Shown: one piece after another, positions 11,434 to 60,490 of the stretch | How positions within the stretch are numbered: position 1 is the first letter of the stretch | How the letters are laid out: each line of letters opens with the position of its first letter | Source: Oscillospiraceae bacterium | Lineage (GTDB): Bacteria > Bacillota > Clostridia > Oscillospirales > Ruminococcaceae | Direction of reading: 5' to 3' | NCBI GenBank assembly: GCA_047602575.1 | Contig: JASGGY010000001.1 | Coordinates: forward strand, 142,413-206,412 | DNA length: 64,000 bases | Notes under the pieces: model-generated | What the model was told of the DNA's origin: nothing | What the model saw: only the letters and a program-made list of their open reading frames with translations | Databases searched by the model: none | Program-made: the position numbers and the translations under genes

Positions 11434-11466
11434 GAAGTTAGAAGTCAGAGGTTAGAATTGGGGTTA
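11434..11466 (+). repeat. solo heptad array
   Basis: GAAGTTA GAAGTCA GAGGTTA GAATTGG GGTTAC, between two minus-strand genes. Confidence 0.7.
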
Positions 11467-11482
11467 CCTACCGTCTGCTTCG

Positions 11483-12481
11483 CTAGGCGGCGGGTTGGGT
11501 GCTGTCCGCCGTGGCTGCGGCGGGGTTGAGGAAGCCGCCGAGCATTTCCTTGAACACGGCGCTGACGGTGAATGTGCCGGCGGGCGACCAGGTTCCCGTG
11601 GGGATGATGCAGTAAGCGGGGCGGACGGCGTTGTTGCGCAGATAATTGATTGACACTTTGGCAACCTTATATTCAACCGTTGTGATATTTGAGTCGGATT
11701 GTTCATATAAAGCATTGAATACGCTGTCGATGTCGTCGTCGGTCAGACCGGCTGTCTGGAAAACGGTGTTGAGCCAATCCGCCAGAAGCGTTCCCGTGAC
11801 CTTGACGTTTGCTGCCGCACCGTCGGAAAAGGTGGGGTAATTCATGATCATACGCAGCTGTGCGCCCTCAAGCGCGGTTTTTGTTCCTTTGGGATAAGCC
11901 ACGGATTCCTTTGTGATGGGATCGCGATAAAACAGCTCCTCGGTGACGGTGTAAAGCACACCGCCGGTCAGCTTAACAACCTTGTCAAACGCATCGCCGG
12001 TGACGGTCATGTATTTGTCCGTCGTGATGCCAAGCTCCGTTTCCAGCGATTTGCGCACGGAGATGATTCCCCCCGCGGCATAGAGGTTGGAGATCGTCTG
12101 TCCTTCGCAGACCGTCGCCGGAGAGAGCGGAATCACAACCAGCTTGCCCGTCGCGGGCAGAGAGCGGATCACGGCGCAGTTGCTCACCTTTCCGGAATCG
12201 ATCATCAGAAAGAGCATGGTGCGGTTGTTTGCCTCGCTGATGCCGGCGGACTGGGCGGTGGGAACGGACGAGGCGTCGTCGCCGGTCGAACTGAGGCTCT
12301 GCATCAGCTTCATGCCGGCAAAGCCGAACACCACCAGACACAGCATCAGGGTCAGGAAATACACCAGCGCCACGGGGGCTTGCGAGCGCTTCTTGCGCGC
12401 GGGCTTGCCGTCCGCCGGCACGGCGGGCAGGGGGAGGGGTGCGCCCGTCGGTTTCTCGGGGGTGGGGGTGTTGGAATTCAC
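11483..12481 (-). CDS. membrane-anchored LytR/CpsA/Psr (LCP)-like protein
   Basis: 332 aa ORF with GTG start (12479-12481) and an AAAGGAG SD 9 nt upstream. One N-terminal TM helix, then an LCP-like core (TMLFLMID..VIPLSPATV..ITTDKYMTVTGDAFDKVVKLTGGV..GAQLRMIMNY). Confidence 0.5.
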   Translation of the reverse strand: MNSNTPTPEKPTGAPLPLPAVPADGKPARKKRSQAPVALVYFLTLMLCLVVFGFAGMKLMQSLSSTGDDASSVPTAQSAGISEANNRTMLFLMIDSGKVSNCAVIRSLPATGKLVVIPLSPATVCEGQTISNLYAAGGIISVRKSLETELGITTDKYMTVTGDAFDKVVKLTGGVLYTVTEELFYRDPITKESVAYPKGTKTALEGAQLRMIMNYPTFSDGAAANVKVTGTLLADWLNTVFQTAGLTDDDIDSVFNALYEQSDSNITTVEYKVAKVSINYLRNNAVRPAYCIIPTGTWSPAGTFTVSAVFKEMLGGFLNPAAATADSTQPAA

Positions 12482-12571
12482 GCTGCACAGCTCCTTTTTC
12501 TATCCGGTGATAAAAAAATCCGGAAAAGGTCTTGAATAATTGCGTCCGGGGGTGTAAACTGATAAATGGCG

Positions 12572-13125
12572 TCACGGGGAATCTTCCCCGACCAGCGGGG
12601 CGATCCTGTCGATGCGGATGACGTGGGTGTCAAGCTGCTTGCGTTCGGCATAGCGGATGGTCTGCCCCGTTCCGCTGCGGAAATCCGCCACGACCGCGAT
12701 GAGCTTTGACGCGCGGTCAATCATGTATTCGTTGCGCAGGCGCATGGCTGCGGGGGAATAGTGTTCGCAGACATAAACCATTTCATCCGCCTGCTCGGCG
12801 ATGATACCGTAGTTGAATTTGTCCTCGCCGCGGAATTTTGCGGCATAGCCGGGAAACGGCACGGCGCAGATCAGGCGCAGCGGGTAGGTTTTTTTCAGAT
12901 CCAGTACAATCGACGCGGCAAGCAGGTCAATGCCCTGCGCCATGCCGGTGATGAAGTCGGTATAGCCCGACGCGGCGGTGCGTTCGGTTTCAAGGCGCAG
13001 GATGCTGAGGATTCTGCGCAGCGCGGCGGAGCTTCTGTCGCCGCAGCCGGGAAGCTTTTCGCAGCGGTGACCGGAGAACGCGCAGGTTTTTTCTCTGTCG
13101 GAAATAACGCTCCCCTCCCTCGCAT
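12572..13125 (-). CDS. SLOG/DUF1273 (YpsA-like) protein, apparent 1-nt frameshift in an A/T run (13087-13092)
   Basis: ORF 12572-12943 (GMAQGIDLLAASIVLDLKKTYPLRLICAVPF..) is open further upstream through ..TCAFSGHRCEKLPG.. with no start codon. ATG 13123-13125 (ORF 12895-13125) joins that frame if the A6 run becomes A7. Confidence 0.55.
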
Positions 13126-13267
13126 GATGTCAGAACCGCCGCGGCAATCAAAGCGGCACTTTCAGCATACCACACCCGCGGAAATTTTTCAAGTGTTCCG
13201 CGCATTTTTTAGAAATATATACTGCGGTCCGCATACGGTCGGGCTGTGCGGGAAGGAATGGAATCAA

Positions 13268-14642: not shown

Positions 14643-15335
14643 ATGTCAAAATTCTGTACATCCTGCGGTGCATCCTTGTCCGATGAGGCGGGCTTCTGCA
14701 CCAATTGCGGCGCAAAGTCGCCGCAGACTGCGCCCGCTCAGCCGGCTTTCCAAACCGCGCCGGCAATGAATCAGAACACGCCGATATCCAACATCACCGC
14801 GGCGCTGGGAACGCCGGTTGATTTCATAAAAGCCAGGCTTAAAAATATGAACAAAAATGTCTGCGTCGGCATCTGTGCTGTGGTGGCAGGCGTGTTGGTG
14901 ATCATTCTGCTGCTGAGTATACTGGGTGGCGCCTATAAAAAACCGATCCGCAACATGGTCAAGGGTATGGATCAACAGGATTTTGACAAATACCTCTCCG
15001 CTTTCGCCGACGACGAGCAGGACTCGATAAAGGACAGTGTTGACGACGAAGATGACTACATGAAAGATCAGATGGATATCTATGAGGATATCGTCGGAAA
15101 CGACGTTGATATCTCCTATGACATTCTCGACAAAACGAAGCTTGACAAGGATCAGCTCGACGATTATGAGGACAGCTACAAATCGCGTTACGATGAAAAA
15201 ACAGACATCACCAAGGGCTACGATGTCTGCGTGAAAGTTACCATCAAAGGCGACGACGAGAAGCGGGTCAACTACCGCGACGTGACGGTGTTAAAAATTG
15301 ACGGCAAGTGGTGCGTTTACAGCGGCGGTCTTTAA
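14643..15335 (+). CDS. zinc-ribbon membrane protein with acidic extracytoplasmic domain
   Basis: 230 aa ORF MSKFCTSCGASLSDEAGFCTNCGAK (CxxC..CxxC), one TM helix and an Asp/Lys-rich C-terminal domain. SD AGGAGGG upstream. Confidence 0.6.
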   Translation: MSKFCTSCGASLSDEAGFCTNCGAKSPQTAPAQPAFQTAPAMNQNTPISNITAALGTPVDFIKARLKNMNKNVCVGICAVVAGVLVIILLLSILGGAYKKPIRNMVKGMDQQDFDKYLSAFADDEQDSIKDSVDDEDDYMKDQMDIYEDIVGNDVDISYDILDKTKLDKDQLDDYEDSYKSRYDEKTDITKGYDVCVKVTIKGDDEKRVNYRDVTVLKIDGKWCVYSGGL

Positions 15336-15391
15336 GGCAATCAAATCGCATTCGTTTTATAAAAGATATACATAAACTAGGAGGAAAAACT

Positions 15392-16108
15392 ATGTCAAAA
15401 TTCTGCACATCCTGCGGCGCAGCCCTATCCGATGATGCCGGCTTCTGCACAAGTTGCGGCGCAAAAACCGCACAAGCTGTCGCACCCCAGCCCGCTCCCG
15501 TGGTTACACCCACCCCTGTTCCCGCCGGCGCAACGGTTGCACAGGGCACACCGCTTGATTCGTTCAAGAAAAAAGTAAAGGAAATCTGGACAGGTCCTAA
15601 CCGCAATAAGATCATCGGCATCGCCGCCATCGCTGTGGTTGCGATCATTGTGCTGTGTATTCTGGCAAGTCTTTTGGGCGGCGGCTATAAAAAACCCATT
15701 GACAATCTGTTCAAGGGAATGGAAAAGGGCGACGAAGACAAATTCTTTTCCGCGTTCCCGAAAGAGGCAGAGGATCAATTTAAATCCTACAGCTCGATCC
15801 TCGGCTCATCGTCATCGTTCTTGGATTCCATCACCGACGAGCTGGAAGATAAATACGGTGACGACATTAAAATATCCTATAAGGTTAAAGATAAGGATAA
15901 AATGGACAAAGACGATCTTGACGATCTCGAAGATGATTATAAGGATAAATACGATGAGAAAGTTAAAATTACCAAAGGCTATGAGTTGACGTTGGATGTT
16001 ACCATTAAAGGTGACGACGATAAGGATACCGATGATATGGATATCACGGTTCTGAAAATTGACGGCGATTGGTATGTCGATTTCTCGTCATTCGATGTAA
16101 TGGACTAA
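15392..16108 (+). CDS. zinc-ribbon membrane protein, tandem paralog of 14643-15335
   Basis: Start at MSKFCTSCGAALSDDAGFCTSCGAK (SD AGGAGGA). Same architecture as the upstream gene; the first ~80 nt are similar at the DNA level. Confidence 0.6.
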   Translation: MSKFCTSCGAALSDDAGFCTSCGAKTAQAVAPQPAPVVTPTPVPAGATVAQGTPLDSFKKKVKEIWTGPNRNKIIGIAAIAVVAIIVLCILASLLGGGYKKPIDNLFKGMEKGDEDKFFSAFPKEAEDQFKSYSSILGSSSSFLDSITDELEDKYGDDIKISYKVKDKDKMDKDDLDDLEDDYKDKYDEKVKITKGYELTLDVTIKGDDDKDTDDMDITVLKIDGDWYVDFSSFDVMD

Positions 16109-16626: not shown

Positions 16627-17721
16627 ATGGAGCAGATTTCCCAAACGGTTCTGACGGCATACATCGACCGGCTCGAACGTGAGCGTACCCTCACCGCCGA
16701 TGAATTTTCGGCACTGGTGGAATTCCACACCCCCGCTTTGGCGGAATATGTCGCACAAAAAGCCCGCACCCTGCGCGCGCAATACTACGACAACGATGTT
16801 TATATGCGCGGGCTGATTGAGTTCACCAATTACTGTAAAAACGACTGCTTTTATTGCGGCATCCGCCGGAGCAACACCGCTGCCGAGCGGTACAGGCTGA
16901 CAAAGGACGACATCCTCGCCTGTGCGGCGGAAGGCTATCAGCTGGGCTTCCGGACGTTCGTTTTGCAGGGCGGTGAAGATCCCTTTTTCACCGATGAGCG
17001 GCTAACGGAAATTGTTTCGGCGCTCAAAGCGGCTTACCCCGACTGCGCGGTGACGCTTTCCGTGGGGGAACGCAGCTTTGAAAGCTATAAAAAGCTGTAT
17101 GACGCGGGGGCTGACCGGTATTTGCTGCGCCACGAAACCGCCGACGAGGCGCATTACGCAACGCTTCATCCCGCAGAACTGACGCTCGAAAACCGCAAGC
17201 GCTGTTTGTTTGATTTAAAGAAAATCGGCTTTGAAGTCGGAACGGGCTTTATGGTTGGCTCGCCGCACCAGACCCCGCAGACCATCGCCAAGGATCTGCT
17301 GTTTCTGCGGGAGCTTTTGCCCCAGATGGTGGGCATCGGGCCGTTCATCCCGCACGCGGACACGCCGCTGAAAAGCCATCCCGCCGGAAGTGCGCAGCTG
17401 ACGACATTTTTGCTCTCGCTCATCCGGATTATGCTGCCAAACGTCCTGCTCCCCGCCACCACTGCGCTCGGCACAATCGACCCCGCCGGGCGGGAAAAGG
17501 GCATTCTCTCCGGCGCAAATGTCGTGATGCCAAACCTCTCCCCCGTCGCGGTGCGGAAAAAATATATGCTCTACGACAATAAAATCTGCACCGGCGACGA
17601 GGCGGCGGAGTGCCGCTTCTGTATGCAGCGCAGGGTGGAGTCCATCGGCTATAAAATCGCCGTCTGTCGGGGGGATTGGAAGTCAGAAGTCAGAAGCCAG
17701 AAGTCAGAGGTCAGAAGATGA
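16627..17721 (+). CDS. hydE: [FeFe]-hydrogenase H-cluster maturase HydE (radical SAM)
   Basis: 364 aa ORF with the radical-SAM motif NYCKNDCFYCGIRR and BioB-like HydE sequence throughout. The last 13 codons (KSEVRSQKSEVRR) are encoded by a heptad repeat array. Confidence 0.85.
   Translation: MEQISQTVLTAYIDRLERERTLTADEFSALVEFHTPALAEYVAQKARTLRAQYYDNDVYMRGLIEFTNYCKNDCFYCGIRRSNTAAERYRLTKDDILACAAEGYQLGFRTFVLQGGEDPFFTDERLTEIVSALKAAYPDCAVTLSVGERSFESYKKLYDAGADRYLLRHETADEAHYATLHPAELTLENRKRCLFDLKKIGFEVGTGFMVGSPHQTPQTIAKDLLFLRELLPQMVGIGPFIPHADTPLKSHPAGSAQLTTFLLSLIRIMLPNVLLPATTALGTIDPAGREKGILSGANVVMPNLSPVAVRKKYMLYDNKICTGDEAAECRFCMQRRVESIGYKIAVCRGDWKSEVRSQKSEVRR
17679..17717 (+). repeat. heptad array (5.5 units) forming the 3' end of hydE
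   Basis: GAAGTCA GAAGTCA GAAGCCA GAAGTCA GAGGTCA GAAG, translated as KSEVRSQKSEVRR before the hydE TGA. Confidence 0.8.
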
Positions 17722-17744: not shown

Positions 17745-18569
17745 ATGAAAACCTTATATGTAACGGATTTGGACGGAACGCTTTTAAAGAGCGATGAGAT
17801 GATTTCGGAATTCAGCCTGCAAGTAATCAACAAGCTTACTGCGTCCGGCACACTGTTTTCCTACGCGACCGCGCGCTCGCTGTCATCGGCGGTGGTTGTC
17901 ACGAAAGGGCTGGAGCTGAATGTTCCGGTTGTGATATACAACGGCGTTTTTCTTGTTAATCCCAAGACGGGGGAACAGATGGCGGAAAACACGTTCTGCG
18001 CGGACGAAATGAAAGAGGTTGTGCAATTTTTGACCGAACAGGAAATTTCCCCGCTTGTATATTCCTTTGTGAACGGTGAGGAAAAGGTATCGTGGCTTGC
18101 CGGAAGTGAGAACGAAGGCATGCGTCATTACCTATCCAACCGCAGGGGCGACCGCAGGCTGCGGGAGATTTCCGACCGCAAGGAGCTGTACGCAGGCGAG
18201 GTGTTCTATTTCACCTGTATCGGAACAAAAGAACGGCTTGCACCTGTTTATGCGCGGTTTCGGAACGATCCGCATTACAATGTGATTTTCCAGCAGGAGC
18301 TTTACAGAAATGAGTTTTGGTGTGAAATGATGCCAAAAAATGCGACAAAAGCGAATGCCTTGCTTCAACTGAAAAAAATATTGGGGTGCGATCGGCTTGT
18401 GACCTTTGGCGACCGCATCAATGACTTGCCGATGTTTGAGATTTCTGACGAATGCTACGCGGTGGAAAATGCTGTTTCAGAACTGAAAGAAAAAGCCACC
18501 GGAATCATCCGCTCAAACGATGCGGATGGTGTTGCGCGGTGGATGGAGGCAGAGGTTCGTAGGCAGTAG
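17745..18569 (+). CDS. Cof-type HAD-IIB phosphatase
   Basis: MKTLYVTDLDGTLL (DxD motif I) ..TFGDRINDLPMF (motif IV). An alternative start at ATG 17718 overlaps the hydE stop (ATGA). Confidence 0.7.
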   Translation: MKTLYVTDLDGTLLKSDEMISEFSLQVINKLTASGTLFSYATARSLSSAVVVTKGLELNVPVVIYNGVFLVNPKTGEQMAENTFCADEMKEVVQFLTEQEISPLVYSFVNGEEKVSWLAGSENEGMRHYLSNRRGDRRLREISDRKELYAGEVFYFTCIGTKERLAPVYARFRNDPHYNVIFQQELYRNEFWCEMMPKNATKANALLQLKKILGCDRLVTFGDRINDLPMFEISDECYAVENAVSELKEKATGIIRSNDADGVARWMEAEVRRQ

Positions 18570-18626
18570 GAGCATTTGTATGTGAACGGTAAGGACGATT
18601 CCCCGCTGTTTAGCAAGGAGTGAACT

Positions 18627-19348: not shown

Positions 19349-20767
19349 ATGTACGATGTAAAATCACCCCGCGCGGCGGAGTTTATCAGCGATGAGGAGG
19401 TGCTGGACACGCTGGATTACGCGTGGAAAAACCGACACAACGACGAACTGGTCTGTCAGATTATCGAGAAAGCAAGGCTGCGCAAGGGCTTGAGCCACCG
19501 GGAAGCGGCGGTGCTGCTCGACTGCGATATTCCGGCGCGCAACGAGGAGATTTTTGCGCTTGCCGAGCAGATCAAGAAAGACTTTTACGGCAACCGCATT
19601 GTCATGTTCGCGCCGCTTTATCTCTCGAATTATTGCGTCAACGGCTGTGTGTACTGCCCGTATCATCTGAAAAACAAAACCATCTGCCGCAAAAAGCTCA
19701 CGCAGGAGGAAATTGAAAAGGAAGTCATCGCCTTGCAGGACATGGGGCATAAGCGCCTCGCGCTCGAAACGGGCGAAGATCCGGTCATCAACCCCATTGA
19801 GTATGTGCTGGAAAGCATTAAAACCATCTATGGCATCAAGCACAAAAACGGCGCGATCCGCCGTGTCAATGTCAACATCGCCGCGACCACGGTGGAGAAT
19901 TACACCAAACTGCGCGATGCTGGCATCGGCACGTACATCCTTTTTCAGGAAACCTATAACAAGGAAACCTATGAGAAGCTCCATCCGACCGGCCCCAAGC
20001 ACAACTATGCCTACCACACCGAGGCCATGGACAGAGCCATGCAGGGCGGCATCGACGACGTGGGCTGCGGCGTGCTGTTCGGGCTGGAATTGTACCGCTA
20101 TGACTTCACGGCGCTGCTCATGCACGCGGAGCATCTTGAAGCCGCGTTCGGCGTCGGCCCGCATACCATCAGTGTGCCGCGCATCCGCAGCGCCGACGAC
20201 ATTGACGCGGATACCTTTGATAACGGAATTAACGACGATATTTTCGCAAAAATCATCGCCTGCATCCGCGTCGCCGTGCCTTATACCGGCATGATTGTGT
20301 CCACCAGAGAAAGCCAGAAGTGCCGCGAGCGCGTGCTGCGGCTGGGCGTTTCCCAGATCAGCGGCGGCTCGAAAACCAGCGTGGGCGGTTATGCCGAACC
20401 GGAAATTCCGGAAGAGAATTCTCAGCAGTTTGACGTTGCCGACACGCGTACCCTTGACGAGATTGTCAACTGGCTCATGCGCATGGGCTATATCCCGAGC
20501 TTCTGCACCGCCTGCTACCGCGAGGGAAGAACAGGCGACCGCTTTATGAGCCTGTTGAAATCCGGTCAGATTCAGAACTGCTGTCACCCGAACGCGCTGA
20601 TGACACTGCTGGAATACTTAGAAGACTACGCGTCAGACGACACGAAACGTATCGGCAGCGAAATGATCCTTAACGAAATCGGTAATGTGCCCAACGAGAA
20701 GGTGCGCAGGATCGTGACGGAGAACATCGAGAAAATCCGCGGCGGGCAAAGAGATTTCAGATTTTAG
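19349..20767 (+). CDS. hydG: [FeFe]-hydrogenase H-cluster maturase HydG (radical SAM tyrosine lyase)
   Basis: Start at MYDVKSPRAAEFISDEEV. Radical-SAM motif SNYCVNGCVYCPY, C-terminal Cys motif FCTACYREGRTGDRF..NCCHPNA, 472 aa. The 5' part of ORF 19151-20767 overlaps the preceding HAD gene. Confidence 0.85.
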   Translation: MYDVKSPRAAEFISDEEVLDTLDYAWKNRHNDELVCQIIEKARLRKGLSHREAAVLLDCDIPARNEEIFALAEQIKKDFYGNRIVMFAPLYLSNYCVNGCVYCPYHLKNKTICRKKLTQEEIEKEVIALQDMGHKRLALETGEDPVINPIEYVLESIKTIYGIKHKNGAIRRVNVNIAATTVENYTKLRDAGIGTYILFQETYNKETYEKLHPTGPKHNYAYHTEAMDRAMQGGIDDVGCGVLFGLELYRYDFTALLMHAEHLEAAFGVGPHTISVPRIRSADDIDADTFDNGINDDIFAKIIACIRVAVPYTGMIVSTRESQKCRERVLRLGVSQISGGSKTSVGGYAEPEIPEENSQQFDVADTRTLDEIVNWLMRMGYIPSFCTACYREGRTGDRFMSLLKSGQIQNCCHPNALMTLLEYLEDYASDDTKRIGSEMILNEIGNVPNEKVRRIVTENIEKIRGGQRDFRF

Positions 20768-20998
20768 GCTGTTAGGGGTTAGGAAACAAGGATTGGGAGG
20801 AGAAGGTTGCTCAACTTCTCCCATTTCACAAACCAAACCATATAGCGTCACAAGGAGTCAACGCGCCCGCCATCCCGTTGAGAACATCTCACTACAACGC
20901 GCGCAACGGGTTTCCAAAGGGGGCATGCCCCCTTTGGTGGGAGAGTCAAGAGGGGGCAAAGCCCCCTTTTGTGGGGTCAGGGGTGAAGCCCCTGCATA
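20764..20998 (-). repeat. composite repeat unit: heptads + variable hairpin + conserved boxes + hairpin stack (arm A2)
   Basis: TTAGGCT GTTAGGG GTTAGGA (20764-20784), hairpin GGAGAAG..CTTCTCC, TTCACAAACCAAA, CAACGCGCGCAA, GGGTTTCC (20908), CCAAAGGGGGCATGCCCCCTTTGG (20914-20937), then two more GC hairpins to 20995. Homologous to 32161-32375. Confidence 0.8.
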
Positions 20999-21023: not shown

Positions 21024-22229
21024 ATGGGGATGAATGAAACGCCGGCGGGGGAGCGCGTGCACATCGGGCTGTTCGGGCGGCGCAATGCGGGGAAGTCAAG
21101 CTTAATTAACGCGCTGACCGGGCAGGCGCTTTCCATCGTGTCCGATGTGGCGGGAACGACGACAGACCCCGTGTATAAAGCCATGGAGCTGCTGCCGCTC
21201 GGACCTGTGATGCTCATCGACACGGCGGGGCTGGACGAGCTGGGCGAGCTGGGCGGGCTTCGCGTGAAAAAAACGCTGCAGGTGCTCAATAAAACCGACG
21301 TGGCGGTGGTGGTCTGTGACGCGCGGGAGGGAATTACCGCGGACGACCAAATGATCATTGACCGATGCAGGGCAAAAAAAATTCCGCTTGTGATTGTGAT
21401 GAACAAGATTGATCTGGCGAGCGGAATTCCCGCGCGGCAGGATGCGGACGCGGTGTTTGTCAGCGCCGCGACGGGCGAGAACATCGCCGCGCTGAAGGAG
21501 AAAATCGCACAGTCTGTCAAAGCCTCCGACGAAAAGTTGCGGCTGGTGGCGGATCTGGTTGCGCCGTCGGACTTTGTGGTGCTGGTTGTGCCGATTGACA
21601 AGGCGGCGCCCAAGGGCAGGTTGATTCTGCCCCAGCAGCAAACCATTCGCGACCTGCTGGAAGCCGACGCGGTGTCGGTTGTGGTGAAAGAATACGAGCT
21701 GCGCGACACGCTGATGACGCTCGGGAAAAAGCCGAGGCTCGTCATCACCGACAGCCAGGTGTTCGCGAAGGTGTCCGCGGACACGCCGCAGGACATCCCG
21801 CTGACGTCGTTTTCGATCCTTTTTGCGCGGTATAAGGGCATGCTGGAGGAGGCGGTGCGCGGGGCGCAGGCGCTTGATACGCTCACCGACGGCGACCGAG
21901 TGCTGATTGCGGAGGGCTGTACGCACCACCGCCAGTGCGACGACATCGGCACGGTGAAGCTCCCCCGCTGGATCGGGCAGCACACGGGCAAAAAGCTTGA
22001 TTTTACGTTCACAAGCGGCGGGGAATTCCCCGACGATCTGTCGTCTTACAAGCTCGTTGTTCACTGCGGCGGCTGTATGCTGGGCGACCGCGAGGTGAAA
22101 TTCCGCACAAAATGCGCCGCCGAGCAGAACATCCCCATCACCAATTACGGCATCGCCATCGCCCATATGCAGGGCATTCTAAAACGCAGCGTCGCCGTTT
22201 TCCCCCACATCGCAGCAATGTTGCCTTAG
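21024..22229 (+). CDS. hydF: [FeFe]-hydrogenase maturation GTPase HydF
   Basis: 401 aa ORF with GRRNAGKSSLINALTG (G1), DTAGLDE (G3), NKID (G4) and the C-terminal cluster-binding CTHHRQC...HCGGC. Confidence 0.85.
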   Translation: MGMNETPAGERVHIGLFGRRNAGKSSLINALTGQALSIVSDVAGTTTDPVYKAMELLPLGPVMLIDTAGLDELGELGGLRVKKTLQVLNKTDVAVVVCDAREGITADDQMIIDRCRAKKIPLVIVMNKIDLASGIPARQDADAVFVSAATGENIAALKEKIAQSVKASDEKLRLVADLVAPSDFVVLVVPIDKAAPKGRLILPQQQTIRDLLEADAVSVVVKEYELRDTLMTLGKKPRLVITDSQVFAKVSADTPQDIPLTSFSILFARYKGMLEEAVRGAQALDTLTDGDRVLIAEGCTHHRQCDDIGTVKLPRWIGQHTGKKLDFTFTSGGEFPDDLSSYKLVVHCGGCMLGDREVKFRTKCAAEQNIPITNYGIAIAHMQGILKRSVAVFPHIAAMLP

Positions 22230-22541
22230 ATAAAACCTATGTCAGGGGGCGCCGCCCCCCGACACCCCCTGCCAAAGGGGGCGTTGCCCCCTCTGGACTC
22301 CCTCACCAAAGGGGGCATGCCCCCTTTGGAAACCCGTCGTTTCAGGGATTATACTTTGTTTTGCTTAACAGATTTGTATTATCGCTGCTACTTTGTGAAT
22401 CTATCGGGGCGCTCGAAAAGGAAGCAAATACTTTGCTCTCAAGAAGAACTGGTTATCGCAGCAATTTTTCAATTTTTCAACAATCTGCCCTCCCAATTTC
22501 TAACGTCCAACCTCTAACATCTAACTTCAAAACGTGACTTC
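22227..22541 (+). repeat. hairpin-stack repeat, long-tail copy ending in inverted heptads (arm A3)
   Basis: TTAGATAAAACC (contains the hydF stop), GTCAGGGGGCGCCGCCCCCCGAC (22241-22263), CCAAAGGGGGCGTTGCCCCCTCTGG, CCAAAGGGGGCATGCCCCCTTTGGAAACCC (22306-22335), a tail with TACTTTGTGAA / GGCGCTCGA boxes, then reverse-complement heptads at 22491-22541. Confidence 0.8.
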
Positions 22542-23019: not shown

Positions 23020-25479
23020 ATGGCAAAGAAGGTTCTCATCGTCGGCGGCGTGGCGGGCGGCGCGACGGCTGCGGCAAGGCTGCGCAGGCTGGATGAAAGC
23101 GCGCAGATCATGATGTTTGAAAAAGGCGGGTACATCTCGTTTGCGAACTGCGGGCTGCCCTATTACATCGGCGGGGCGATCCGCGAGAAGTCCGCACTTA
23201 CACTTCAGACACCGCAGAGCTTCAAGGCGCGGTTCAACGTGGATGTGCGGGTCAACAGCGAGGTTGTTTCCATCGACAAGGAAAGAAAAACCGTTTCGGT
23301 GCGCAATCACGCGACGGGTGAAACCTATGAGGAGCGCTATGACGCACTGGTGCTGTCGCCGGGCGCAGAACCGATCCGCCCGAATCTCGAGGGGATGGAT
23401 TCTGACAAGATTTTCACCCTGCGCAACATCCCCGACACCGTGAAAATCAAGGAATACATCCAGACGCACCGCCCGAAAACCGCGGCGGTCGTTGGCGGCG
23501 GCTTCATCGGCGTGGAAATGGCGGAGAACCTGCACGCAGCGGGACTTTCGGTGTCGCTCATCGAGCTGGCGGATCAGGTCATCGCACCGATTGACTATGA
23601 CATGGCGGGGGATGTCCATCGCCACATCGAGAGCAAGGGCGTTGCGCTTTATCTCGGCAATGCCGTGCGGAGCATTTCCGACAACGGAAAGCAGCTCGAA
23701 ATCGCCCTGGGCAGCGGCATGATTACCGCCGACCTGCTCATCATGGCAATCGGCGTAAAGCCCGACACGAAGCTTGCGAAGGAAGCCGGTCTGGCACTCA
23801 ACGCACGCGGTGCAATCCTCGTGGACGACCATATGCGCACCGGCGCGCCGGATGTCTACGCCGTCGGCGATGCGGTGGAAATCACCGATTTCGTCACCGG
23901 CGAAAAGGGCTTTGTTCCCCTTGCAGGGCCTGCCAACAAGCAGGGCAGGATTGCCGCGGACAATATCTGCGGGTTGGACAGCATTTACACCGGAACGCAG
24001 GGCTCGTCGATTTTAAAGGTGTTTGACTTAACCGTCGCCGCCACCGGCATCAACGAAAAAACCGCCAAGCGGCTTGGGCTGGATTATGAGAAATCCTTCA
24101 CCTATTCCGCCAGCCACGCCAGCTATTATCCCGGTGCGGTGAATATGTCGATCAAGACGATTTTTGAGAAAGCCACAGGCAAGATCCTCGGCGCGCAGGT
24201 GGTGGGCTATGACGGCGCGGATAAGCGCTGCGATGTGCTTGCGACGGCGATCCGCGCCGGCATGACCGCACTGGATCTCGCCCGGCTCGAGCTTTGCTAC
24301 GCGCCGCCCTACGGCTCGGCAAAAGACCCGGTCAACATGGCGGGCTATGTGATAGAAAACATCCTCGCCGGCAGGGAAAAGATTTTCCACTGGCACGATG
24401 TGGAGAAGCTTCCCCGCGACGGCAGCGTAACGCTGCTCGACACCCGCACACCCATAGAATATGCCAACGGACACATCGGCGGCTTTATCAACATCCCGCT
24501 CGACGAGCTGCGCGGGCGGCTGGGCGAGCTTGACAAGAAAAAGCCCGTGTATGTTACCTGCCAGATCGGGCTGCGGGGTTATGTGGCTGCGCGGATTTTG
24601 ATGCAGAACGGCTTTGACGCGTTCAATTTAAGCGGGGGCTACCGGCTTTACAACTCCATTTTCGGTGCGCATCCGCCCAAGCCCGCCGCCGGCATCAACC
24701 CCGAAACCCAGCTTCCCGAGCCGCCGGCGGAGAAGCTCGCAGAAGCTCCCGCAAAGATCGTTTCCGTTGACGCGTGCGGCTTGCAGTGCCCCGGACCGAT
24801 TGTGAAGCTTTCCGCGGCGCTCGAAACAGCGGCGGAGGGCGATGTGGTGGAAATTTCCACGACTGACCCCGCGTTTGCCGGCGACATTGAGGGCTTTTGC
24901 CGGCGCACGGGAAACGAGTTCCTCGGTATCACGAGCGCAAAGGGCGTATCGGCGGCGCGGATCAGAAAAAAGCATGTTGTTTCGGGCGGAACGGCTCAAG
25001 CTGAATCCAAGGACAAAAAGAACATCATTGTGTTTTCCGGTGATCTGGATAAAGCGATTGCGTCGTTCATCATCGCCAACGCCGCCGCCGCGATGGGGCG
25101 CAAGGTGAGTATGTTCTTCACCTTCTGGGGGCTGAACATCCTGCGCCGCGCGGAAAAGGTAAGGGTGCGGAAGAATTTTATCTCGAAAATGTTCGGGATG
25201 ATGATGCCGCGCGGCGCTGGGCGGCTCAAGCTTTCTAAAATGAATATGGGCGGCATGGGAGCGAAGATGATACGCGGCGTGATGAAATCCAAAAATGTCA
25301 GCAGTCTTGAGGAGCTCATTGCCCTTGCGCAGCAAAACGGCGTAGAGCTGATTGCCTGCTCGATGTCGATGGACGTCATGGGCATCACGCAGGAGGAGCT
25401 TCTCCCCGGCGTCAAGCTTGCAGGCGCCGCCGCCATGCTCGCCAACGCCGAAGAATCCGACATGTCATTGTTTATTTAG
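23020..25479 (+). CDS. CoA-disulfide/persulfide reductase-like flavoprotein fused to rhodanese, TusA-like and DsrE-like domains
   Basis: 819 aa ORF with GGVAGGATAAARLRR (FAD), SFANCGLPYY (redox Cys), VTCQIGLRG (rhodanese Cys loop), DACGLQCPGP (TusA CPxP) and a C-terminal DsrE/DrsE-like region (IIVFSGDLDKAIASFIIANAAAAMG..ACSMSMDVMG). Confidence 0.8.
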   Translation: MAKKVLIVGGVAGGATAAARLRRLDESAQIMMFEKGGYISFANCGLPYYIGGAIREKSALTLQTPQSFKARFNVDVRVNSEVVSIDKERKTVSVRNHATGETYEERYDALVLSPGAEPIRPNLEGMDSDKIFTLRNIPDTVKIKEYIQTHRPKTAAVVGGGFIGVEMAENLHAAGLSVSLIELADQVIAPIDYDMAGDVHRHIESKGVALYLGNAVRSISDNGKQLEIALGSGMITADLLIMAIGVKPDTKLAKEAGLALNARGAILVDDHMRTGAPDVYAVGDAVEITDFVTGEKGFVPLAGPANKQGRIAADNICGLDSIYTGTQGSSILKVFDLTVAATGINEKTAKRLGLDYEKSFTYSASHASYYPGAVNMSIKTIFEKATGKILGAQVVGYDGADKRCDVLATAIRAGMTALDLARLELCYAPPYGSAKDPVNMAGYVIENILAGREKIFHWHDVEKLPRDGSVTLLDTRTPIEYANGHIGGFINIPLDELRGRLGELDKKKPVYVTCQIGLRGYVAARILMQNGFDAFNLSGGYRLYNSIFGAHPPKPAAGINPETQLPEPPAEKLAEAPAKIVSVDACGLQCPGPIVKLSAALETAAEGDVVEISTTDPAFAGDIEGFCRRTGNEFLGITSAKGVSAARIRKKHVVSGGTAQAESKDKKNIIVFSGDLDKAIASFIIANAAAAMGRKVSMFFTFWGLNILRRAEKVRVRKNFISKMFGMMMPRGAGRLKLSKMNMGGMGAKMIRGVMKSKNVSSLEELIALAQQNGVELIACSMSMDVMGITQEELLPGVKLAGAAAMLANAEESDMSLFI

Positions 25480-25620
25480 AGGTCAGAAGTCAGAGGCCAG
25501 AGGTCAGAAACGAAAGAGGACTTATGCGCACGCGCATAAGTCCTCTTTATCACAATTTTTAGTATCTCAAGACTGTTCCCTTGTAACTTCTGACTTCTGA
25601 CCTCTGACTTCTGACCTCTA
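25477..25620. repeat. palindromic heptad element filling the whole convergent intergenic region
   Basis: GAGGTCAGAAGTCAGAGGCCAGAGGTCAGAA (25479-25509) and its near-perfect reverse complement (25588-25618, 2 mismatches) flank a near-perfect 36-nt palindrome AAAGAGGACTTATGCGCACGCGCATAAGTCCTCTTT (25513-25548). TAG stops of both flanking genes abut the arms. Confidence 0.8.
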
Positions 25621-40436: not shown

Positions 40437-40814
40437 CTGTAGATAAAACCTCCCAAAGGGGGCGTTGCCCCCTCTGGACTCCCTCACCAAAGGGTACAAG
40501 TACCCTTTGGAAACCCGTCGTTTCAGGGATTAACTTTGTTTTGTTTAGCGGATTTGTGTTTTCGCTACTACTTCGTGATTTCACAGGGCGCTCGAAAAAA
40601 GAGTATAGACTTTTTATTCAGTCTGGACTAAATCCTTTCTCCCTAAAAAATCAAACCGGCGGCATTTGCGCTATATTCCCCATATAAGAATTAAAGTACA
40701 AGTAATTGACAAACTGAAAAAGACTACAAAACATAAAAAACAAAAACAAAGGGTTTCCAAAGGGGGCATGCCTCCTTTGGTGAGGGAGTCCAGAGGGGGC
40801 AACGCCCCCTTTGG
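40437..40814. mobile_element. MITE-like element with ~64-bp terminal inverted repeats built from two stacked hairpins (arms A6 and A7)
   Basis: Left end at 40453-40516 reads CCAAAGGGGGCGTTGCCCCCTCTGGACTCCCTCACCAAAGGGTACAAGTACCCTTTGGAAACCC. Right end at 40751-40814 is its reverse complement with few changes. The ~234-bp AT-rich interior has no ORF. Confidence 0.6.
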
Positions 40815-40830
40815 TCATAGCCGGTATTTG

Positions 40831-45279: not shown

Positions 45280-45296
45280 GGAACATAGATCAACGC

Positions 45297-45430
45297 TAGT
45301 CAGGGGGCGCTGCCCCCCGACACCTCCTGCCAAAGGGTACAAGTACCCTTTGGAAACCCATTGTTTTATAGTTTATACTTTGATTTTCTTTGCTATTTTG
45401 TGCGAGAGCTGTTGTTTTGTGCTTCTATAT
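45297..45430 (+). repeat. hairpin-stack repeat (arm A8) between the ABC exporter stop and the terminator
   Basis: GTCAGGGGGCGCTGCCCCCCGAC (45299-45321), CCAAAGGGTACAAGTACCCTTTGGAAACCC (45330-45359), and a tail with a TTTTGTGCGA box. Confidence 0.75.
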
Positions 45431-45492: not shown

Positions 45493-46125
45493 TTAGCACT
45501 TTCCGCGCAGAACCGGCGCAAGCTTTTTGTAAACCAGCAGTGTGATGAACACGCTGGCAAGACCTTTGATGAAGGTGAAGGGCAGGTTAAAAATCAGCAG
45601 GCACTTGAGCAGGGTGGAAGCCGCGGGGAGGATTGCTTTGTACATTCCCACCACCACGGGGATGGGGAAGCCCACAAAGCGCTCGTACATGGGGTAGATC
45701 AGGAAGAGGTTGATCGGCACGCTCGCCGCCGCCATCAACATCGCCCCGCCCAACGCGCTGAGAATCGCCGCGGTGCGCGTTTTCACGCGCTTGTAAATCA
45801 GCCCCGCGGGCAGAATGAACGCCGTTCCCATCAGGAAGTTTGACAGCTCGCCGATGCCCATACTTTGGCTGAACGGCAGGTGAACGAGGTTTTTCACCGC
45901 GCACACCACAATGCCGGAGAGCGGACCGAACGTAAACGCTGCGATCAGCGCAGGCAAATCGGAAAAATCAAACTTGATGAATGCCGGCATCAGCCCGGGC
46001 AGGGGGATTTCCAGAAACATCAGAATCGCCGCCGCCGCGCCCAGCATGGCGGTGGAGGTCATTTTGCGGATATTGCGGGCTTTTTGGTTGACTTTCGGAT
46101 CGGTACTGCAGTTCATAGGGATCAT
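45493..46125 (-). CDS. ribU: ECF transporter S component, riboflavin-type (RibU-like)
   Basis: 210 aa multi-TM ORF (..FLEIPLPGLMPAFIKFDFSDLPALIAAFTFGP..) directly downstream of an FMN riboswitch. The start may be ATG 46114-46116, which has better SD spacing. Confidence 0.75.
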   Translation of the reverse strand: MIPMNCSTDPKVNQKARNIRKMTSTAMLGAAAAILMFLEIPLPGLMPAFIKFDFSDLPALIAAFTFGPLSGIVVCAVKNLVHLPFSQSMGIGELSNFLMGTAFILPAGLIYKRVKTRTAAILSALGGAMLMAAASVPINLFLIYPMYERFVGFPIPVVVGMYKAILPAASTLLKCLLIFNLPFTFIKGLASVFITLLVYKKLAPVLRGKC

Positions 46126-46211: not shown

Positions 46212-46231
46212 CACAGCTTTGCCGTACTGTT

Positions 46232-46349
46232 GTTTCTCTCATCCGGACTATAACCGTTGGTACCGGAATCTAACCGGTTCGGCGGGATTCCTCAGAAATC
46301 CCGTTCGCGGACTTTACCGCCAGTGTGGAGTTGCACCACGCCCCGAAAC
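46232..46349 (-). promoter_or_regulatory. FMN riboswitch (RFN element)
   Basis: Minus strand reads TTCGGGGCGTGGTGCAACTCCACACTGGCGGTAAAGTCCGCGAAC...GAACCGGTTAGATTCCGGTACCAACGGTTATAGTCCGGATGAGAGAAAC. This matches RFN conserved blocks (GGGGC.GGGT, CGGCGGTA..GCCCGCGA-like, GGT.A.ATTCC, GACAGTATAGTCTGGATG-like, AGAAG-like). Confidence 0.85.
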
Positions 46350-46377
46350 AAATATGAAATTGTGTGTAAGATTAGCG

Positions 46378-52482: not shown

Positions 52483-52524
52483 AAAGCGCACACAGCTCCA
52501 ATGCTGTGTGCGCTTTTTGCTTTC
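52483..52524 (+). terminator. intrinsic terminator of pck
   Basis: AAAGCGCACACAGC-TCCAAT-GCTGTGTGCGCTTT followed by TTGCTTTC. Confidence 0.75.
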
Positions 52525-52534
52525 GCTAAACGTT

Positions 52535-52880
52535 ATGTCAGGGGGCGCCGCCCCCCGACACCCCCTGCCAAAGGGTACAAGTACCCTTTGGAAACCCATA
52601 GTTTTTGTTATTATTCGTTTGTAATCTTTTCTGGTTTGCTAATTACTGTTACTTTGTGTTTTTATTTAGCAACAAAGCACAAATGCCGCCAGCTGATGGT
52701 TCAGACGGGCGGCATAAAGCGCATATTTAATGTATGTTTTTATAATGAAGAGGAGAAATCCAAAGTAAAAGTCTGCGCAAATTAAAATCGTTTTACAAAG
52801 TTATAATTACACAAACAAAGGGTTTCCAAAGGGGGCAGGCCCCCTTTGGTGGGAGGTGTCGGAGGGTGAAACCCTCTGAC
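52535..52880. mobile_element. MITE-like element with ~61-bp terminal inverted repeats built from two stacked hairpins (arms A9 and A10)
   Basis: Left end at 52537-52597 reads GTCAGGGGGCGCCGCCCCCCGACACCCCCTGCCAAAGGGTACAAGTACCCTTTGGAAACCC. The right end at 52820-52880, reverse-complemented, reads GTCAGAGGGTTTCACCCTCCGACACCTCCCACCAAAGGGGGCCTGCCCCCTTTGGAAACCC. The ~222-bp AT-rich interior is partly homologous to that of 40437-40814. Confidence 0.6.
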
Positions 52881-52891
52881 AAAGTGTAAGT

Positions 52892-57798: not shown

Positions 57799-58812
57799 TT
57801 AGTTGAGCTCTGCGAAATACTTGATAGTTCTTACCATCTGGCTGGTGTAGGAGTTCTCGTTGTCGTACCATGCAATAACCTGAACCTGATAGGTTTCGTC
57901 GTCAAGCTTGGAAACCATGGTCTGGGTTGCGTCGAACAGCGAGCCGTAGGTGATGCCGATGACGTCGGAGGATACGATCTCGTCGGTGGTGTAGCCGAAC
58001 GAAGCGGAAGAAGCAGCTTTCATTGCGGCATTGATGCCGTCAACGGTAACGTCCTTGCCCTTGACAACAGCCACGAGGATCGTGGTAGAGCCAGTCGGAA
58101 CAGGAACGCGCTGTGCGGAGCCGATGAGCTTGCCCTTCAGCTCGGGGATAACCAGTCCGATTGCCTTTGCAGCGCCGGTGGAGTTGGGAACGATGTTTGC
58201 AGCACCCGCTCTTGCTCTGCGCAGGTCACCCTTTCTGTGAGGGCCGTCGAGGATCATCTGGTCGCCGGTATAAGCATGGATGGTGGACATGATGCCGCTC
58301 TGGATGGGCGCGTAGTCATTGAGCGCCTTTGCCATCGGAGCAAGACAGTTCGTTGTGCAGGATGCCGCGGAAATGATGGTGTCGTCCTTGGTCAGGATGT
58401 TCTCGTTTACGGAGAATACGACAGTGGGCAGGTCATTTCCGGCAGGAGCAGAGATAACGACTTTCTTGGCACCTGCGTCGATGTGCGCCTGGCTGGCTGC
58501 CTTGGATACATAGAAGCCCGTGCATTCGAGAACCACGTCAACGCCGATTTCACCCCAGGGAAGCTCTGCTGCCTTGGGCTTTGCGTAGATGATGATTTTC
58601 TTTCCGTCAACGGTGATGAAATCCTCGCCTGCTTCGACGGTATGACCATCGTATCTGCCCTGTGCGGTGTCATATTTGAGCAGGTGCGCAAGCATATCGG
58701 GCTTTGTCAAGTCGTTGATTGCAACAACCTCGTAGCCCTCCGCGCCAAACATCTGCCGGAACGCAAGGCGTCCGATTCTGCCGAAACCATTGATTGCAAC
58801 TTTAACTGCCAT
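57799..58812 (-). CDS. gap: glyceraldehyde-3-phosphate dehydrogenase
   Basis: 337 aa ORF with [15 protein letters not shown] and the active site SCTTNCLAP. Confidence 0.9.
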
Positions 58813-59316
58813 AATTTATTAACCTCCTAAAAAAATTCATGTATTTATTGTACACCATTTCCTGTGTTTTTTCAAGGGCTTTGATAAAAAAATAACTAAA
58901 TTTTTATATATCACACAAACTTGCCGCCCATTTTCCCGAAAAACCAGCCACAACGCTTGAATCGGAAAAATCCGACGCCCGATGATTGCCGGATCGGGTG
59001 GAACGTATATTCCATATATAGAAATATCAGATAGTATCCCATGATAAAGAAAACTACACTTGATTTGTCGTATATCTGAATTTTTCCTTAATTCGTGCGA
59101 GTTGGACTATAATTGACTACTATTATGTGATATAATAGAACAAATATACGATTGATATTCTTCCGCCGAAAACAAATACTACTACGGATGTCAAATGCAA
59201 CGTGTTACAAATGCCCTGCCCACAAAAACTTTGTCTGATACGACAAATAAATGACACGAAATTTGTAGAAACGCATAAATTAAGGGCGACAAACACATCA
59301 ACAAGGAGCAAATGCA

Positions 59317-60426
59317 ATGGACAAGCGGAAATTGGAAATCTTGGCGGAACTCTATGGTACGGCTGCACAAAAAGCCGCGGTCACGGACGAGCAGATGTGC
59401 GTTTTGTGGACAAACCAACCGGATTTTTTTAAAGACTTTTTTCCCGGCGCGCTGTTTGAGCGCCCTGAGCCGAAAGCCGAATTTGCACTCCGGCTGCCAA
59501 TTGAAACAGACACAATGTGCATTCTTTTTCAAAGCGGCGAGCCTTATACCGCGCGGGTATTGCCGGTGTCAGAAGGCGGCGCGGTGGGCGGCTATCTCAT
59601 CGAAGCGGTCACAATGACGGAATTTGATTTACTTGCCATGCGGCTTGACACGAATGTGGTTCAGGATCGCCAGCGCCAGATCGCCGGCATCCGCACAGCC
59701 GTTTCGGAGATCGTCGCCACCAACGCCATGCTCTACGAAGCGCTTGTCCAGCAGGGGCAGTTCGAGCTGGTGGAGATGGTCAAGAACCAAAGCGCCAGCT
59801 GTTACAAAGCCTTATCCTACAGCAGCAATCTCTCCGAGCTGCTCAAATATAGCATGGGTGTCTTTAAGCCCGTGCGCAGCAACGCATCGGTGTACCTCGC
59901 CGACATCGTAGGAACCTGCGCGCATTTCCTGCGCGACCTGAATGTGGAGATCACCCGGCAGATTGAACCGGATATTCATCTGGAGCTTGACTACGACCGG
60001 TTTACCGCCGCGGTGATGAACCTGATCATCAACGCCGTCCAGAATAACATTTCCGAGAAAAAAACCGTTCAGATCACCCTGCGCCGCAGCCGGTCTGAAA
60101 TTATCTTCTCTATCGAGGACAACGGCATCGGCATCCCGCCGGAGAATATCCCGAAGCTGTTCACACCGTATGCACTGACGGAAAAGTTCTCCGAAAAAAC
60201 CGGACTGGGGCTGCCACTCTGCAATATGTTCGCGGAAAAGTTTGGCGCTGCGATCACCGTTTCCTCAAAGCTTGATATGGGCACGCAGATTTTCATGCGT
60301 TTTCCCGCGGACGACGACCCGACCATTCCCGCATCGCTCGAATCCCCCTCAAAAGCGTATATCACCGAACGCTTCTCCCCGCTGTACCTGTATCTGTCAA
60401 AGGTCATTAAAATCAAAATTGTATAA
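59317..60426 (+). CDS. soluble histidine-kinase-like ATPase (HATPase_c) without recognisable H-box
   Basis: 369 aa ORF with SD AAGGAG. N box (AVMNLIINAVQN), G1 (IEDNGIGIP), F (LFTPY) and G2 (TGLGLPLC) are present. No TM helix is present. The DHp-like segment reads QIAGIRTAVSEI, with no His. Confidence 0.6.
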   Translation: MDKRKLEILAELYGTAAQKAAVTDEQMCVLWTNQPDFFKDFFPGALFERPEPKAEFALRLPIETDTMCILFQSGEPYTARVLPVSEGGAVGGYLIEAVTMTEFDLLAMRLDTNVVQDRQRQIAGIRTAVSEIVATNAMLYEALVQQGQFELVEMVKNQSASCYKALSYSSNLSELLKYSMGVFKPVRSNASVYLADIVGTCAHFLRDLNVEITRQIEPDIHLELDYDRFTAAVMNLIINAVQNNISEKKTVQITLRRSRSEIIFSIEDNGIGIPPENIPKLFTPYALTEKFSEKTGLGLPLCNMFAEKFGAAITVSSKLDMGTQIFMRFPADDDPTIPASLESPSKAYITERFSPLYLYLSKVIKIKIV

Positions 60427-60433
60427 CAAACAA

Positions 60434-60473
60434 GAAGCCCGGCGCTGCATTTTACAGCGTCGGGCTAATTTTA
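60434..60473. terminator. bidirectional hairpin terminator between the HK-like gene and gltD
   Basis: AGCCCGGCGCTG-CATTTTA-CAGCGTCGGGCT followed by AATTTT. Confidence 0.6.
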
Positions 60474-60490
60474 GAGGTTGGGGTTACTTA
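60469..60490 (+). repeat. short heptad-like remnant
   Basis: TTAGAGGTTGGGGTTACTTA shares GAGGTT..GGGGTTAC with the end of the array at 11448-11466. It overlaps the gltD stop. Confidence 0.4.

Follow-up and report, generated by a model that had tools for sequence, protein, structure and literature searches.

Short tandem arrays of the heptanucleotide GARGTYA lie at gene ends in a 64,000-nucleotide stretch of the genome of an Oscillospiraceae bacterium (contig JASGGY010000001.1, positions 142,413 to 206,412; hereafter the window). Five of these arrays are real and far beyond chance, and a sixth is a decayed copy. They bring a new unit and a new lineage to a known but unexplained class of repeats that includes the short tandemly repeated repetitive (STRR) sequences of cyanobacteria, the TAACTGA repeats of the Beggiatoaceae, and the GGGAATC and GGGGAYT repeats of Xanthomonas and Nostoc. 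We think it probable that the arrays are microsatellites generated by slippage, filtered by selection to gene ends, and passively built into the genes and transcripts that they adjoin.

The original prediction listed nine intervals with tandem heptads, and each was scored against all windows of the same length in the 64 kb, both for match to (GARGTYA)n and for self-identity at period 7. Five intervals (11434-11461, 17679-17717, 25479-25509, 25584-25618 and 32161-32202) match (GARGTYA)n at between 25/28 and 41/42 positions, placing them in the top 0.01-0.07% of windows, and these constitute the strong set. The interval 22491-22541 is degenerate (37/51, top 0.1%) and is a decayed copy of the array, and 20764-20784 is borderline (14/21, top 0.4%; period-7 self-identity in the top 1.2%). 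The last two are indistinguishable from chance: 18553-18575, a plus-strand interval claimed as a degenerate array where the Cof-type HAD gene ends (14/23, top 1.2%), and 60469-60490, also on the plus strand and claimed as a remnant after the terminator of a histidine-kinase-like gene (13/22, top 2.6%), have self-periodicities reached by 17% and 29% of windows respectively.

Two further searches support this division. When at least three units with no more than one mismatch each are required, six arrays are found in the window and none in 30 shuffled versions of it: 11434-11454 (+, three units), 17679-17713 (+, five units), 22501-22528 (-, four units with three mismatches), 25479-25506 (+, four units), 25584-25618 (-, five units) and 32161-32202 (+, six units). 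Exact GARGTYA dimers occur 13 times compared with zero expected from 100 dinucleotide shuffles, and period 7 was called independently by Tandem Repeats Finder (TRF) at 17679, 22499, 25478, 25586 and 32160. Our survey of heptads in this genome is that of the one 64-kb window, in which all six loci lie inside 21 kb (11434-32202); the remaining 43 kb has a similar number of intergenic spacers and no arrays.

Positions G1, A2, G4 and A7 are constant in all 23 full units of the strong arrays, and variation is between A and G at position 3, T and C at position 5, and C and T at position 6. The variants in the window are GAAGTCA, GAGGTCA, GAAGTTA and GAAGCCA, with GAAGTCA being the commonest (18 of the 26 window units, and 58 of 111 arrays elsewhere, among the matches listed). 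In RNA form the arrays thus present an NAG triplet every 7 nt, as had been predicted, and the AG is invariant at that period in the window units. All 16 differences between variants inside arrays are transitions, but since variants are copied along with the array they may represent as few as three independent events, and we do not use this as evidence.

The genes in this region are as originally identified, with Pfam and NCBIfam in agreement, and their order is TM1266-family regulator, hydE, Cof-type HAD, second HAD, hydG, hydF, thioredoxin, flavoprotein, htrA, AGCS symporter and fumarase, with htrA and fumarase on the minus strand; the flavoprotein is an 819-aa, CoA-disulfide-reductase-like product. 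Four of the strong arrays adjoin or overlap a same-strand stop codon, those of hydE, the flavoprotein gene, htrA and the AGCS gene, and in the last three the array supplies the TAG. The first G of the plus-strand array of 4.4 units at 25479-25509 is the G of the flavoprotein TAG (25477-25479), the first G of the minus-strand array of five perfect units at 25584-25618 is the G of the htrA TAG (25618-25620), and the AGCS TAG (32166-32168) is built from units 1 and 2 of the plus-strand array of six units at 32161-32202, which is followed by a 9-bp hairpin and then by a REP-like element adjoining the convergent fumarase gene. Arguably the hydG TAG (20765-20767) is supplied in the same manner by the borderline plus-strand array at 20764-20784, a variant (GTTAGGN)x3 that overlaps it and precedes a hairpin. 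TAG ends nine of the 51 genes in the window, and six of these nine adjoin a claimed array interval (18553, which is not significant, is among these intervals), so that a stop codon usually falls within the repeat pattern itself, YAGARGT.

The hydE array, 5.6 plus-strand units found by both the tandem-repeat and the unit searches, lies at 17679-17717 within the last 13 codons of the gene. Of the 364 HydE residues, the family model reaches no further than 350, and the Thermotoga maritima structures and the model align only to residues 345-350; because family homology stops there, the array adds a C-terminal tail of 13 extra residues, KSEVRSQKSEVRR, to the protein. The Cof-type HAD gene starts with an ATG at 17718 that is overlapped by the hydE TGA (17719-17721), and the last GAGG of the array (17707-17710) is 7 nt upstream of this ATG; the array probably supplies the Shine-Dalgarno site of the HAD gene.

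The remaining two loci have a different orientation. The 11434-11461 array (+; GAAGTTA GAAGTCA GAGGTTA followed by a degenerate GAATTGG, match 25/28) lies between an ORF at 11055-11405 and a lytR-like gene (11483-12481) whose TAG stop is 21 nt away, and because both are on the minus strand the array is antisense in the transcript, which reads UCUAACCUCUGACUUCUAACUUC. The decayed array at 22491-22541 (-; GAAGTTA GATGTTA GAGGTTG GACGTTA), between hydF and the thioredoxin gene, is likewise antisense to transcription. Both are upstream of the next gene, and two of the six window arrays are thus antisense. The original count had six or seven of nine arrays in sense orientation at the ends of upstream genes. 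This placement is borne out for the hydE, flavoprotein, htrA and AGCS arrays and for the borderline hydG array, but the count leans on the two intervals that are not significant.

Mazel et al. reportedly defined, in 1990, the cyanobacterial STRR heptanucleotides CCCCAGT, TTGGTCA and CAACAGT by hybridization and PCR fingerprinting, with no analysis of their position relative to genes. The window arrays resemble these in being tandemly amplified heptanucleotides at dispersed sites in intergenic DNA, with several unit families per genome, and the rotated STRR units (AGTCCCC, GGTCATT and AGTCAAC, compared with AGTCAGA for GARGTYA) share an RGTY core, but the units themselves differ. Three heptamers were reported from Calothrix in 1990 (cited in PMC4692102), and a later survey, as it is summarized in PMC4679880, reports that among long simple repeats heptamers predominate in most genomes, and proposes polymerase slippage as their origin (Mrazek 2007). 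In a Beggiatoaceae genome there are about 170 loci with TAACTGA arrays, which are found also in Cyanobacteria and Bacteroidetes (MacGregor 2015, PMC4679880). These have two to six copies, with related 7-mers that 'split' the arrays, and are nearly all intergenic; some extend over the stop codon that ends the ORF upstream, and 7-nt indels distinguish closely related Cyanothece strains (PMC4679880). Most are 1-40 nt upstream of start codons in one orientation, with forward-strand stops in all three frames, and S1, Csp and CsrA have been proposed as readers but never shown to be such (PMC4679880). The window arrays share with them the heptamer arrays, the stop-codon overlap and the related 7-mers, and TCAGTTA, the reverse complement of TAACTGA, co-occurs with GARGTYA among the genome loci listed. 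They differ in that they adjoin stops rather than starts, and the GARGTCA sense strand contains no stops.

There are close parallels with the tandem GGGAATC repeats of Xanthomonas and GGGGA(C/T)T repeats of Nostoc, which occupy many intergenic loci, avoid coding and divergent regions, and on the coding strand either overlap stop codons or are no more than 50 bp from them (Rehm et al. 2015, PMC4692102). They are transcribed, their length and sequence vary between species at kept sites, and no function was found (PMC4692102). Tandem 7-nt units, intergenic location, stop-codon overlap, a sense-strand preference and convergent pairs are all shared with the window arrays; however, GARGTYA has no G-tracts and so no G-quadruplex potential, and the host belongs to Oscillospiraceae-like Clostridia. 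The repetitive extragenic palindromes (REP) and bacterial interspersed mosaic elements are also multi-copy and intergenic, often lie a few bases from stop codons and form hairpins at mRNA 3' ends, and the one inverted pair in the window behaves alike, but REPs are unit palindromes of 20-40 nt rather than tandem 7-mers, and most of the window arrays are single and unstructured. We found no description of GAAGTCA- or GAGGTCA-type arrays in the literature searched. The earlier statement that no function is described for this heptad is thus correct for the GARGTYA unit, but the class to which it belongs has been described (Mrazek 2007 via PMC4679880; PMC4692102; PMC4679880).

The window arrays have the features of the STRR or long simple sequence repeat class: head-to-tail 7-nt units in three or more copies beyond chance, dispersed loci in the window with one unit family and interspersed related 7-mers, and an intergenic bias with overlap of stop codons and rarity between divergent genes. 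Change of copy number or of unit at a kept site, a further feature of the class, is seen in other lineages.

Arrays of this unit are widespread. One genome per species was scanned for GARGTYAx3, giving at least 119 loci (128 arrays) on which the cross-phylum counts are based, and viral contigs were scanned similarly, giving at least 120 contigs; all of the counts below that refer to genomes, viral contigs, or pairs and singles outside the window are among the matches listed from these two sets. The arrays are found in at least 12 phyla or groups, including Acidobacteriota, Cyanobacteria, Verrucomicrobiota, Bacteroidota, Planctomycetota, Chloroflexota, Nitrospirota, Desulfobacterota, Alphaproteobacteria, Actinomycetota, Bacillota and Kiritimatiellota, and are common in the cyanobacteria Okeania, Moorena and Plectonema. 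Seven is by far the commonest tandem-repeat period in the listed genome loci (375 of about 950 TRF matches), where sister heptads, TCAGTTA among them, are frequent. Scans of viral contigs with composition-matched permutations gave 22 for GTARGAYx3 and at least 120 for AGGRATYx3, compared with at least 120 for GARGTYAx3. Many heptads are abundant, and GARGTYA is one common member rather than a unique signal.

The association with stop codons extends to these other genomes. Of 98 arrays in genomes, 24 have their 5' edge no more than 10 nt from the end of a same-strand open frame (120 codons or longer), as do 20 of 119 in viral contigs, compared with 2.4% and 3.1% of random positions respectively. 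There are also 10 genome and 27 viral cases in which an opposite-strand frame is ended by a TGA or TAA of the array itself. TAG accounts for 11 of 25 array-adjacent stops, compared with a background of 25%, and divergent spacers rarely hold arrays.

The evidence on orientation is more mixed. By stop adjacency the ratio of sense to antisense is 24:10 in genomes and 20:27 in viral contigs, and for single arrays in co-directional spacers it is 27:26 when artefactual frames spanning the array are removed, although the gene calls behind this last ratio are crude. When strand is judged from the purine skew of the flanks, arrays lie on the purine-rich, mRNA-like strand in 61:39 genome and 75:32 viral cases. 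These results conflict, and any general sense-strand bias is weak to moderate.

Comparison of orthologous sites in related phages and Pyrinomonadaceae genomes (locus groups L284/L259/L260, L044/L111, L089/L008 and L254/L273/L345/L281) reveals that a heptad array is kept at the site and that, except in one group of four phage contigs, the unit differs. GARGTYA is replaced by CAGGTGT or by GAGGTCG/GAAATCA at one such site and by GAACRTC, including the AG-less GAACATC, at another, and GAGGTYA alternates with GAGGACA or GARGGAT. Such turnover at kept sites corresponds to concerted evolution within arrays.

A strict rule is seen where two arrays face one another. All 44 inverted GARGTYA pairs in the genome and viral sets (from loci L001-L119 and L243-L362; for example, L001 34-100, L089 2229-2310, L111 248-330 and L276 5080-5160) have the purine arm, GARGTYA, first and TRACYTC second, and none has the reverse order. 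This is so in co-directional (19), convergent (6) and divergent (6) spacers alike, and the sequences between the arms, 2-127 nt in length and often palindromic themselves, are unrelated across the 44 pairs. Pairs of other units follow a similar tendency, as AG favours the 5' arm by 46 to 4 and AGT by 27 to 0, and the purine-rich arm comes first in 47 cases versus 18. The rule is only partly anticipated by the convergent, G-rich-first pairs of Xanthomonas, of which there are 70-75 per genome with pair or single type conserved between species (PMC4692102).

The single inverted pair in the window follows the same order. Its arms, at 25476-25509 and in the 25584-25618 region, are 34 nt long and 94% complementary, and the arrays at 25479 and 25588 (the latter as first delimited) are predicted to pair into an outer stem of 34 bp that encloses a hairpin, in the space separating the convergent flavoprotein and htrA genes. 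The predicted inner hairpin at 25513-25548 (16 bp, GC-containing, AAAGAGGACUUAUGCG....CGCAUAAGUCCUCUUU) is a candidate bidirectional terminator for the two genes. The fold predicted for 25470-25630 has an energy of -88.7 kcal/mol (z = -12.9). By contrast, unstructured RNA is predicted for the lone window arrays (z-scores from +0.8 to +1.7 relative to shuffled sequences). Searches of Rfam gave no match at the arrays or at the REP-like element.

Slippage provides what is probably the best account of these observations. The arrays would arise, change in length and homogenize by slipped-strand mispairing or unequal exchange in 7-nt steps, and would be retained only where a gene end offers a few dispensable bases, with growth proceeding until a stop codon or some other signal is reached. 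They would then be carried passively as parts of the gene end, as TAG stops, a 13-residue tail on HydE, a ribosome-binding site for the next gene, and a 34-bp outer stem. A strand filter is also needed: because the polarity of pairs is absolute and there is a weaker bias toward the mRNA-like strand, we conclude that a strand-specific filter acts, such that the G- or purine-rich strand would usually be the one transcribed and the C-rich complement would be tolerated mainly as a 3' hairpin partner. A candidate for this filter is avoidance of exposed C-rich, G-poor untranslated RNA, to which Rho would bind, and which would be tolerated after a G-rich partner with which it pairs at once. To our knowledge cyanobacteria lack Rho, so a filter based on Rho would not be universal. 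The strand-specific rules favour an RNA-level or strand-level constraint over a duplex DNA site, and a dedicated trans-acting reader is not required by the data. The tandem structure and its significance, the array positions, the TAG link, the HydE tail, the fold energy, the occurrence across phyla, the turnover of units at orthologous sites of other lineages and the polarity of pairs are direct results, and from them we infer slippage as the generator in the window lineage, the absence of a dedicated function, and the nature of the filter.

Several observations weigh against this reading. Independent slippage at each site does not predict six loci with one unit family inside 21 kb and none in the remaining 43 kb, nor is the constancy of positions 1, 2, 4 and 7 over 23 units readily accommodated. 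Four phage contigs whose flanks are 88-94% identical have kept a 4-unit array with one substitution, which suggests constraint. The absolute polarity of the pairs in all intergenic contexts is only partly explained and could reflect a real function. No close relative of the window lineage was found in the collections searched, the best protein identity being 79%. The nearest homologues of the flavoprotein are proteins of metagenome-assembled genomes of Oscillospiraceae and other Clostridia at 77-79% identity, no identical copies of the window flavoprotein or thioredoxin are on record elsewhere, and three contigs encoding flavoprotein relatives (GC content 39-47%) are not syntenic and have no arrays.

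An alternative that we regard as unlikely is that the sense arrays are multivalent platforms in 3' untranslated regions for a protein that binds single-stranded RNA, with one motif per 7 nt, and that they control 3'-end stability, termination or coupling to the next gene. Candidates would be a HutP-like hexamer, reading NAG-N4, or a cold-shock-domain protein with a footprint of about 7 nt. The invariant AG at a 7-nt period in all window units, the weak predicted structure of the lone arrays, the AG and AGT preference of 5' arms in pairs of other units, the tendency of the array strand to be mRNA-like, and the unit family common to all six window loci are all consistent with this. So too is the spacing: HutP reads three XAG motifs per face, 7 nt apart, with A and G as the recognized bases (PMC2425495), and the arrays likewise present three XAG triplets with 4-nt spacers in RNA predicted to be single-stranded. 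However, natural HutP sites are found in the hut 5' leader and consist of two such sets, one on either side of a GC-rich terminator stem, with a linker of 12-17 nt (PMC2425495). That architecture is absent from the window, where the arrays are single sets at the 3' ends of unrelated genes (hydE, flavoprotein, htrA and AGCS); the partner arm of the 25479 array is its complement and contains no XAG, and no other array has a second set. There is also no hutP gene adjacent, and no HutP, TRAP, CsrA or Hfq family protein was found among the approximately 60 window ORFs scanned.

We know of no HutP in some of the phyla that carry GARGTYA arrays. A TRAP site has 9-11 (G/U)AG triplets 2-3 nt apart, and the spacing in the window is 4 nt with three to six triplets. 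Two of the six window arrays are antisense, and single arrays in co-directional spacers have no sense bias by the crude gene calls noted above. The turnover of orthologous sites to AG-less heptads such as GAACATC argues against a reader of fixed sequence, and the original suggestion of a HutP-like ring-shaped reader is not supported.

It is also unlikely, in our estimation, that the heptad arrays are a cross-phylum, strand-specific cis element that is read as single-stranded nucleic acid, rather than neutral microsatellites. The preference of 5' arms for G, AG and AGT, the array starts at stop codons, and the kept sites with unit turnover would suit such an element, whether through conserved machinery with a 7-nt measure (Rho, primase, or a protein of the cold-shock-domain or HutP type) or through some generator dedicated to the repeats. 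Resemblances to primase trinucleotides (CTG/CTA on one strand, GTC on the other), the Staphylococcus aureus Chi sequence GAAGCGG, the CAGT ends of Tc1/mariner elements and telomere-fusion polarity were considered and not used.

Less likely still is that the arrays serve to build structure, with paired arms extending terminator or REP-like hairpins to block 3' exonucleases or stop convergent transcription, and with single arrays being half-sites or decayed pairs. The predicted 34-bp stem around the inner hairpin of the window pair, the 44 pairs elsewhere with their often palindromic spacers, and the conserved pairs of Xanthomonas (PMC4692102) are all in its favour, and the fixed polarity suits folding during transcription, with the C-rich arm at no time exposed. 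But single arrays outnumber paired ones by about 190 to 44, and five of the six window arrays have no partner. Single arrays in the cross-phylum sets are not followed by extra structure, the mean minimum free energy of the next 60 nt being -12.3 kcal/mol compared with -12.6 kcal/mol at random positions, and there is no U-tract after the outer stem of the window pair.

We consider it very unlikely that GAGG units act as Shine-Dalgarno mimics that hold 30S subunits after termination, for re-initiation or for protection of the mRNA. GAGGU is complementary to the anti-Shine-Dalgarno sequence, the GAGG at the end of the hydE array is suitably placed before the HAD start codon, and the TAACTGA repeats of Beggiatoaceae lie just upstream of starts (PMC4679880); however, the commonest unit, GAAGTCA, is not a Shine-Dalgarno sequence, three of the window arrays are in convergent spacers with no downstream gene, and arrays are followed by a gene start no more often than expected (11%, against 20% in the control).

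Equally improbable are DNA-level elements, whether protein-binding sites of the iteron type or terminal inverted repeats belonging to a miniature transposable element, both of which had been proposed: the fixed polarity of pairs is what terminal inverted repeats would show, and there is a TA at both ends of the window pair, but the TA is the end of a partial repeat unit with no other target duplication, the window has one inverted pair and single arrays dominate, the arrays have no common flanks or internal sequence and pair spacers are unrelated, no transposase or rep gene is present in the window, and orientation tracks the mRNA-like strand as a duplex site would not predict. Iterons are direct repeats, usually of 17-22 bp, clustered at an origin beside a rep gene, and the window has instead a 7-nt unit at six loci dispersed over 21 kb, in a chromosomal housekeeping context with no rep gene or origin nearby.

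Two other types of sequence were considered and rejected. A dispersed motif of the Chi, DNA uptake or KOPS (FtsK-orienting polar sequence) type does not fit, as single heptamers outside arrays occur in the window at the expected counts (7, 14, 2 and 3, compared with 7.1, 12.3, 2.9 and 3.7 expected) with no strand bias. Nor are these the contingency simple sequence repeats of phase variation, as the arrays are at the 3' ends of housekeeping genes and not in the 5' coding or promoter regions of surface or virulence genes.

Heptanucleotide repeats have been known in bacteria since 1990. The window adds a clean example from the Clostridia with a unit that recurs from Acidobacteriota to Cyanobacteria to phages, and it adds cases in which a repeat has become a stop codon, a C-terminal tail, a putative ribosome-binding site or a predicted outer hairpin stem. 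There are consequences for annotation, as gene ends set by a microsatellite may shift in 7-nt steps and TAG stops cluster at arrays. If the neutral reading is true then the arrays are ordinary, and the residual interest is in the strict polarity rule, a simple one that could narrow down the mechanism, and in the combination of kept site and variable unit.

The window also contains a second repeat family of ten copies, at 3494-3562, 20904-20972, 22221-22398, 32312-32380, 36617-36738, 40449-40532, 40747-40815, 45279-45400, 52517-52638 and 52816-52884, which looks REP-like or MITE-like (miniature inverted-repeat transposable element) and independent of the heptad arrays. Its invariant core, GGGTTTCCAAAGGG..CCCTTTGG, is a GC hairpin accompanied by one or two further GC hairpins and a CACAAA...TATAAT arm, and the copies mostly begin directly after a stop codon. 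The core is present in at least 120 metagenome contigs of varied GC content, many of them labelled human gut. Three arrays lie close to copies of this repeat, and we considered a mosaic element composed of both, but none of the core-containing contigs listed has a GARGTYA array, and period 7 is not enriched in them. Short arrays of a different heptad, AATTACG/AATTCCG, are found in metagenome contigs of about 42% GC that contain the core (L133 263-281, L170 7549-7580, L207 10058-10090 and L221 1219-1244).

Four other features of the window are worth recording. An FMN riboswitch at 46227-46354 (-) precedes the gene for the S component of an ECF transporter (45493-46125), and a SAM riboswitch at 35187-35298 (+) precedes metK (35373-36635). 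The acetolactate synthase large subunit is split between two overlapping ORFs in different frames, 37167-38183 (TPP_N and TPP_M) and 38029-38775 (TPP_C), which could be a frameshift, an assembly error or a pseudogene. Finally, the adjacent genes at 14643-15335 and 15308-16108 encode paralogous zinc-ribbon proteins and share stretches of 106 nt and 56 nt that are approximately 78% identical, indicating that they arose by tandem gene duplication.

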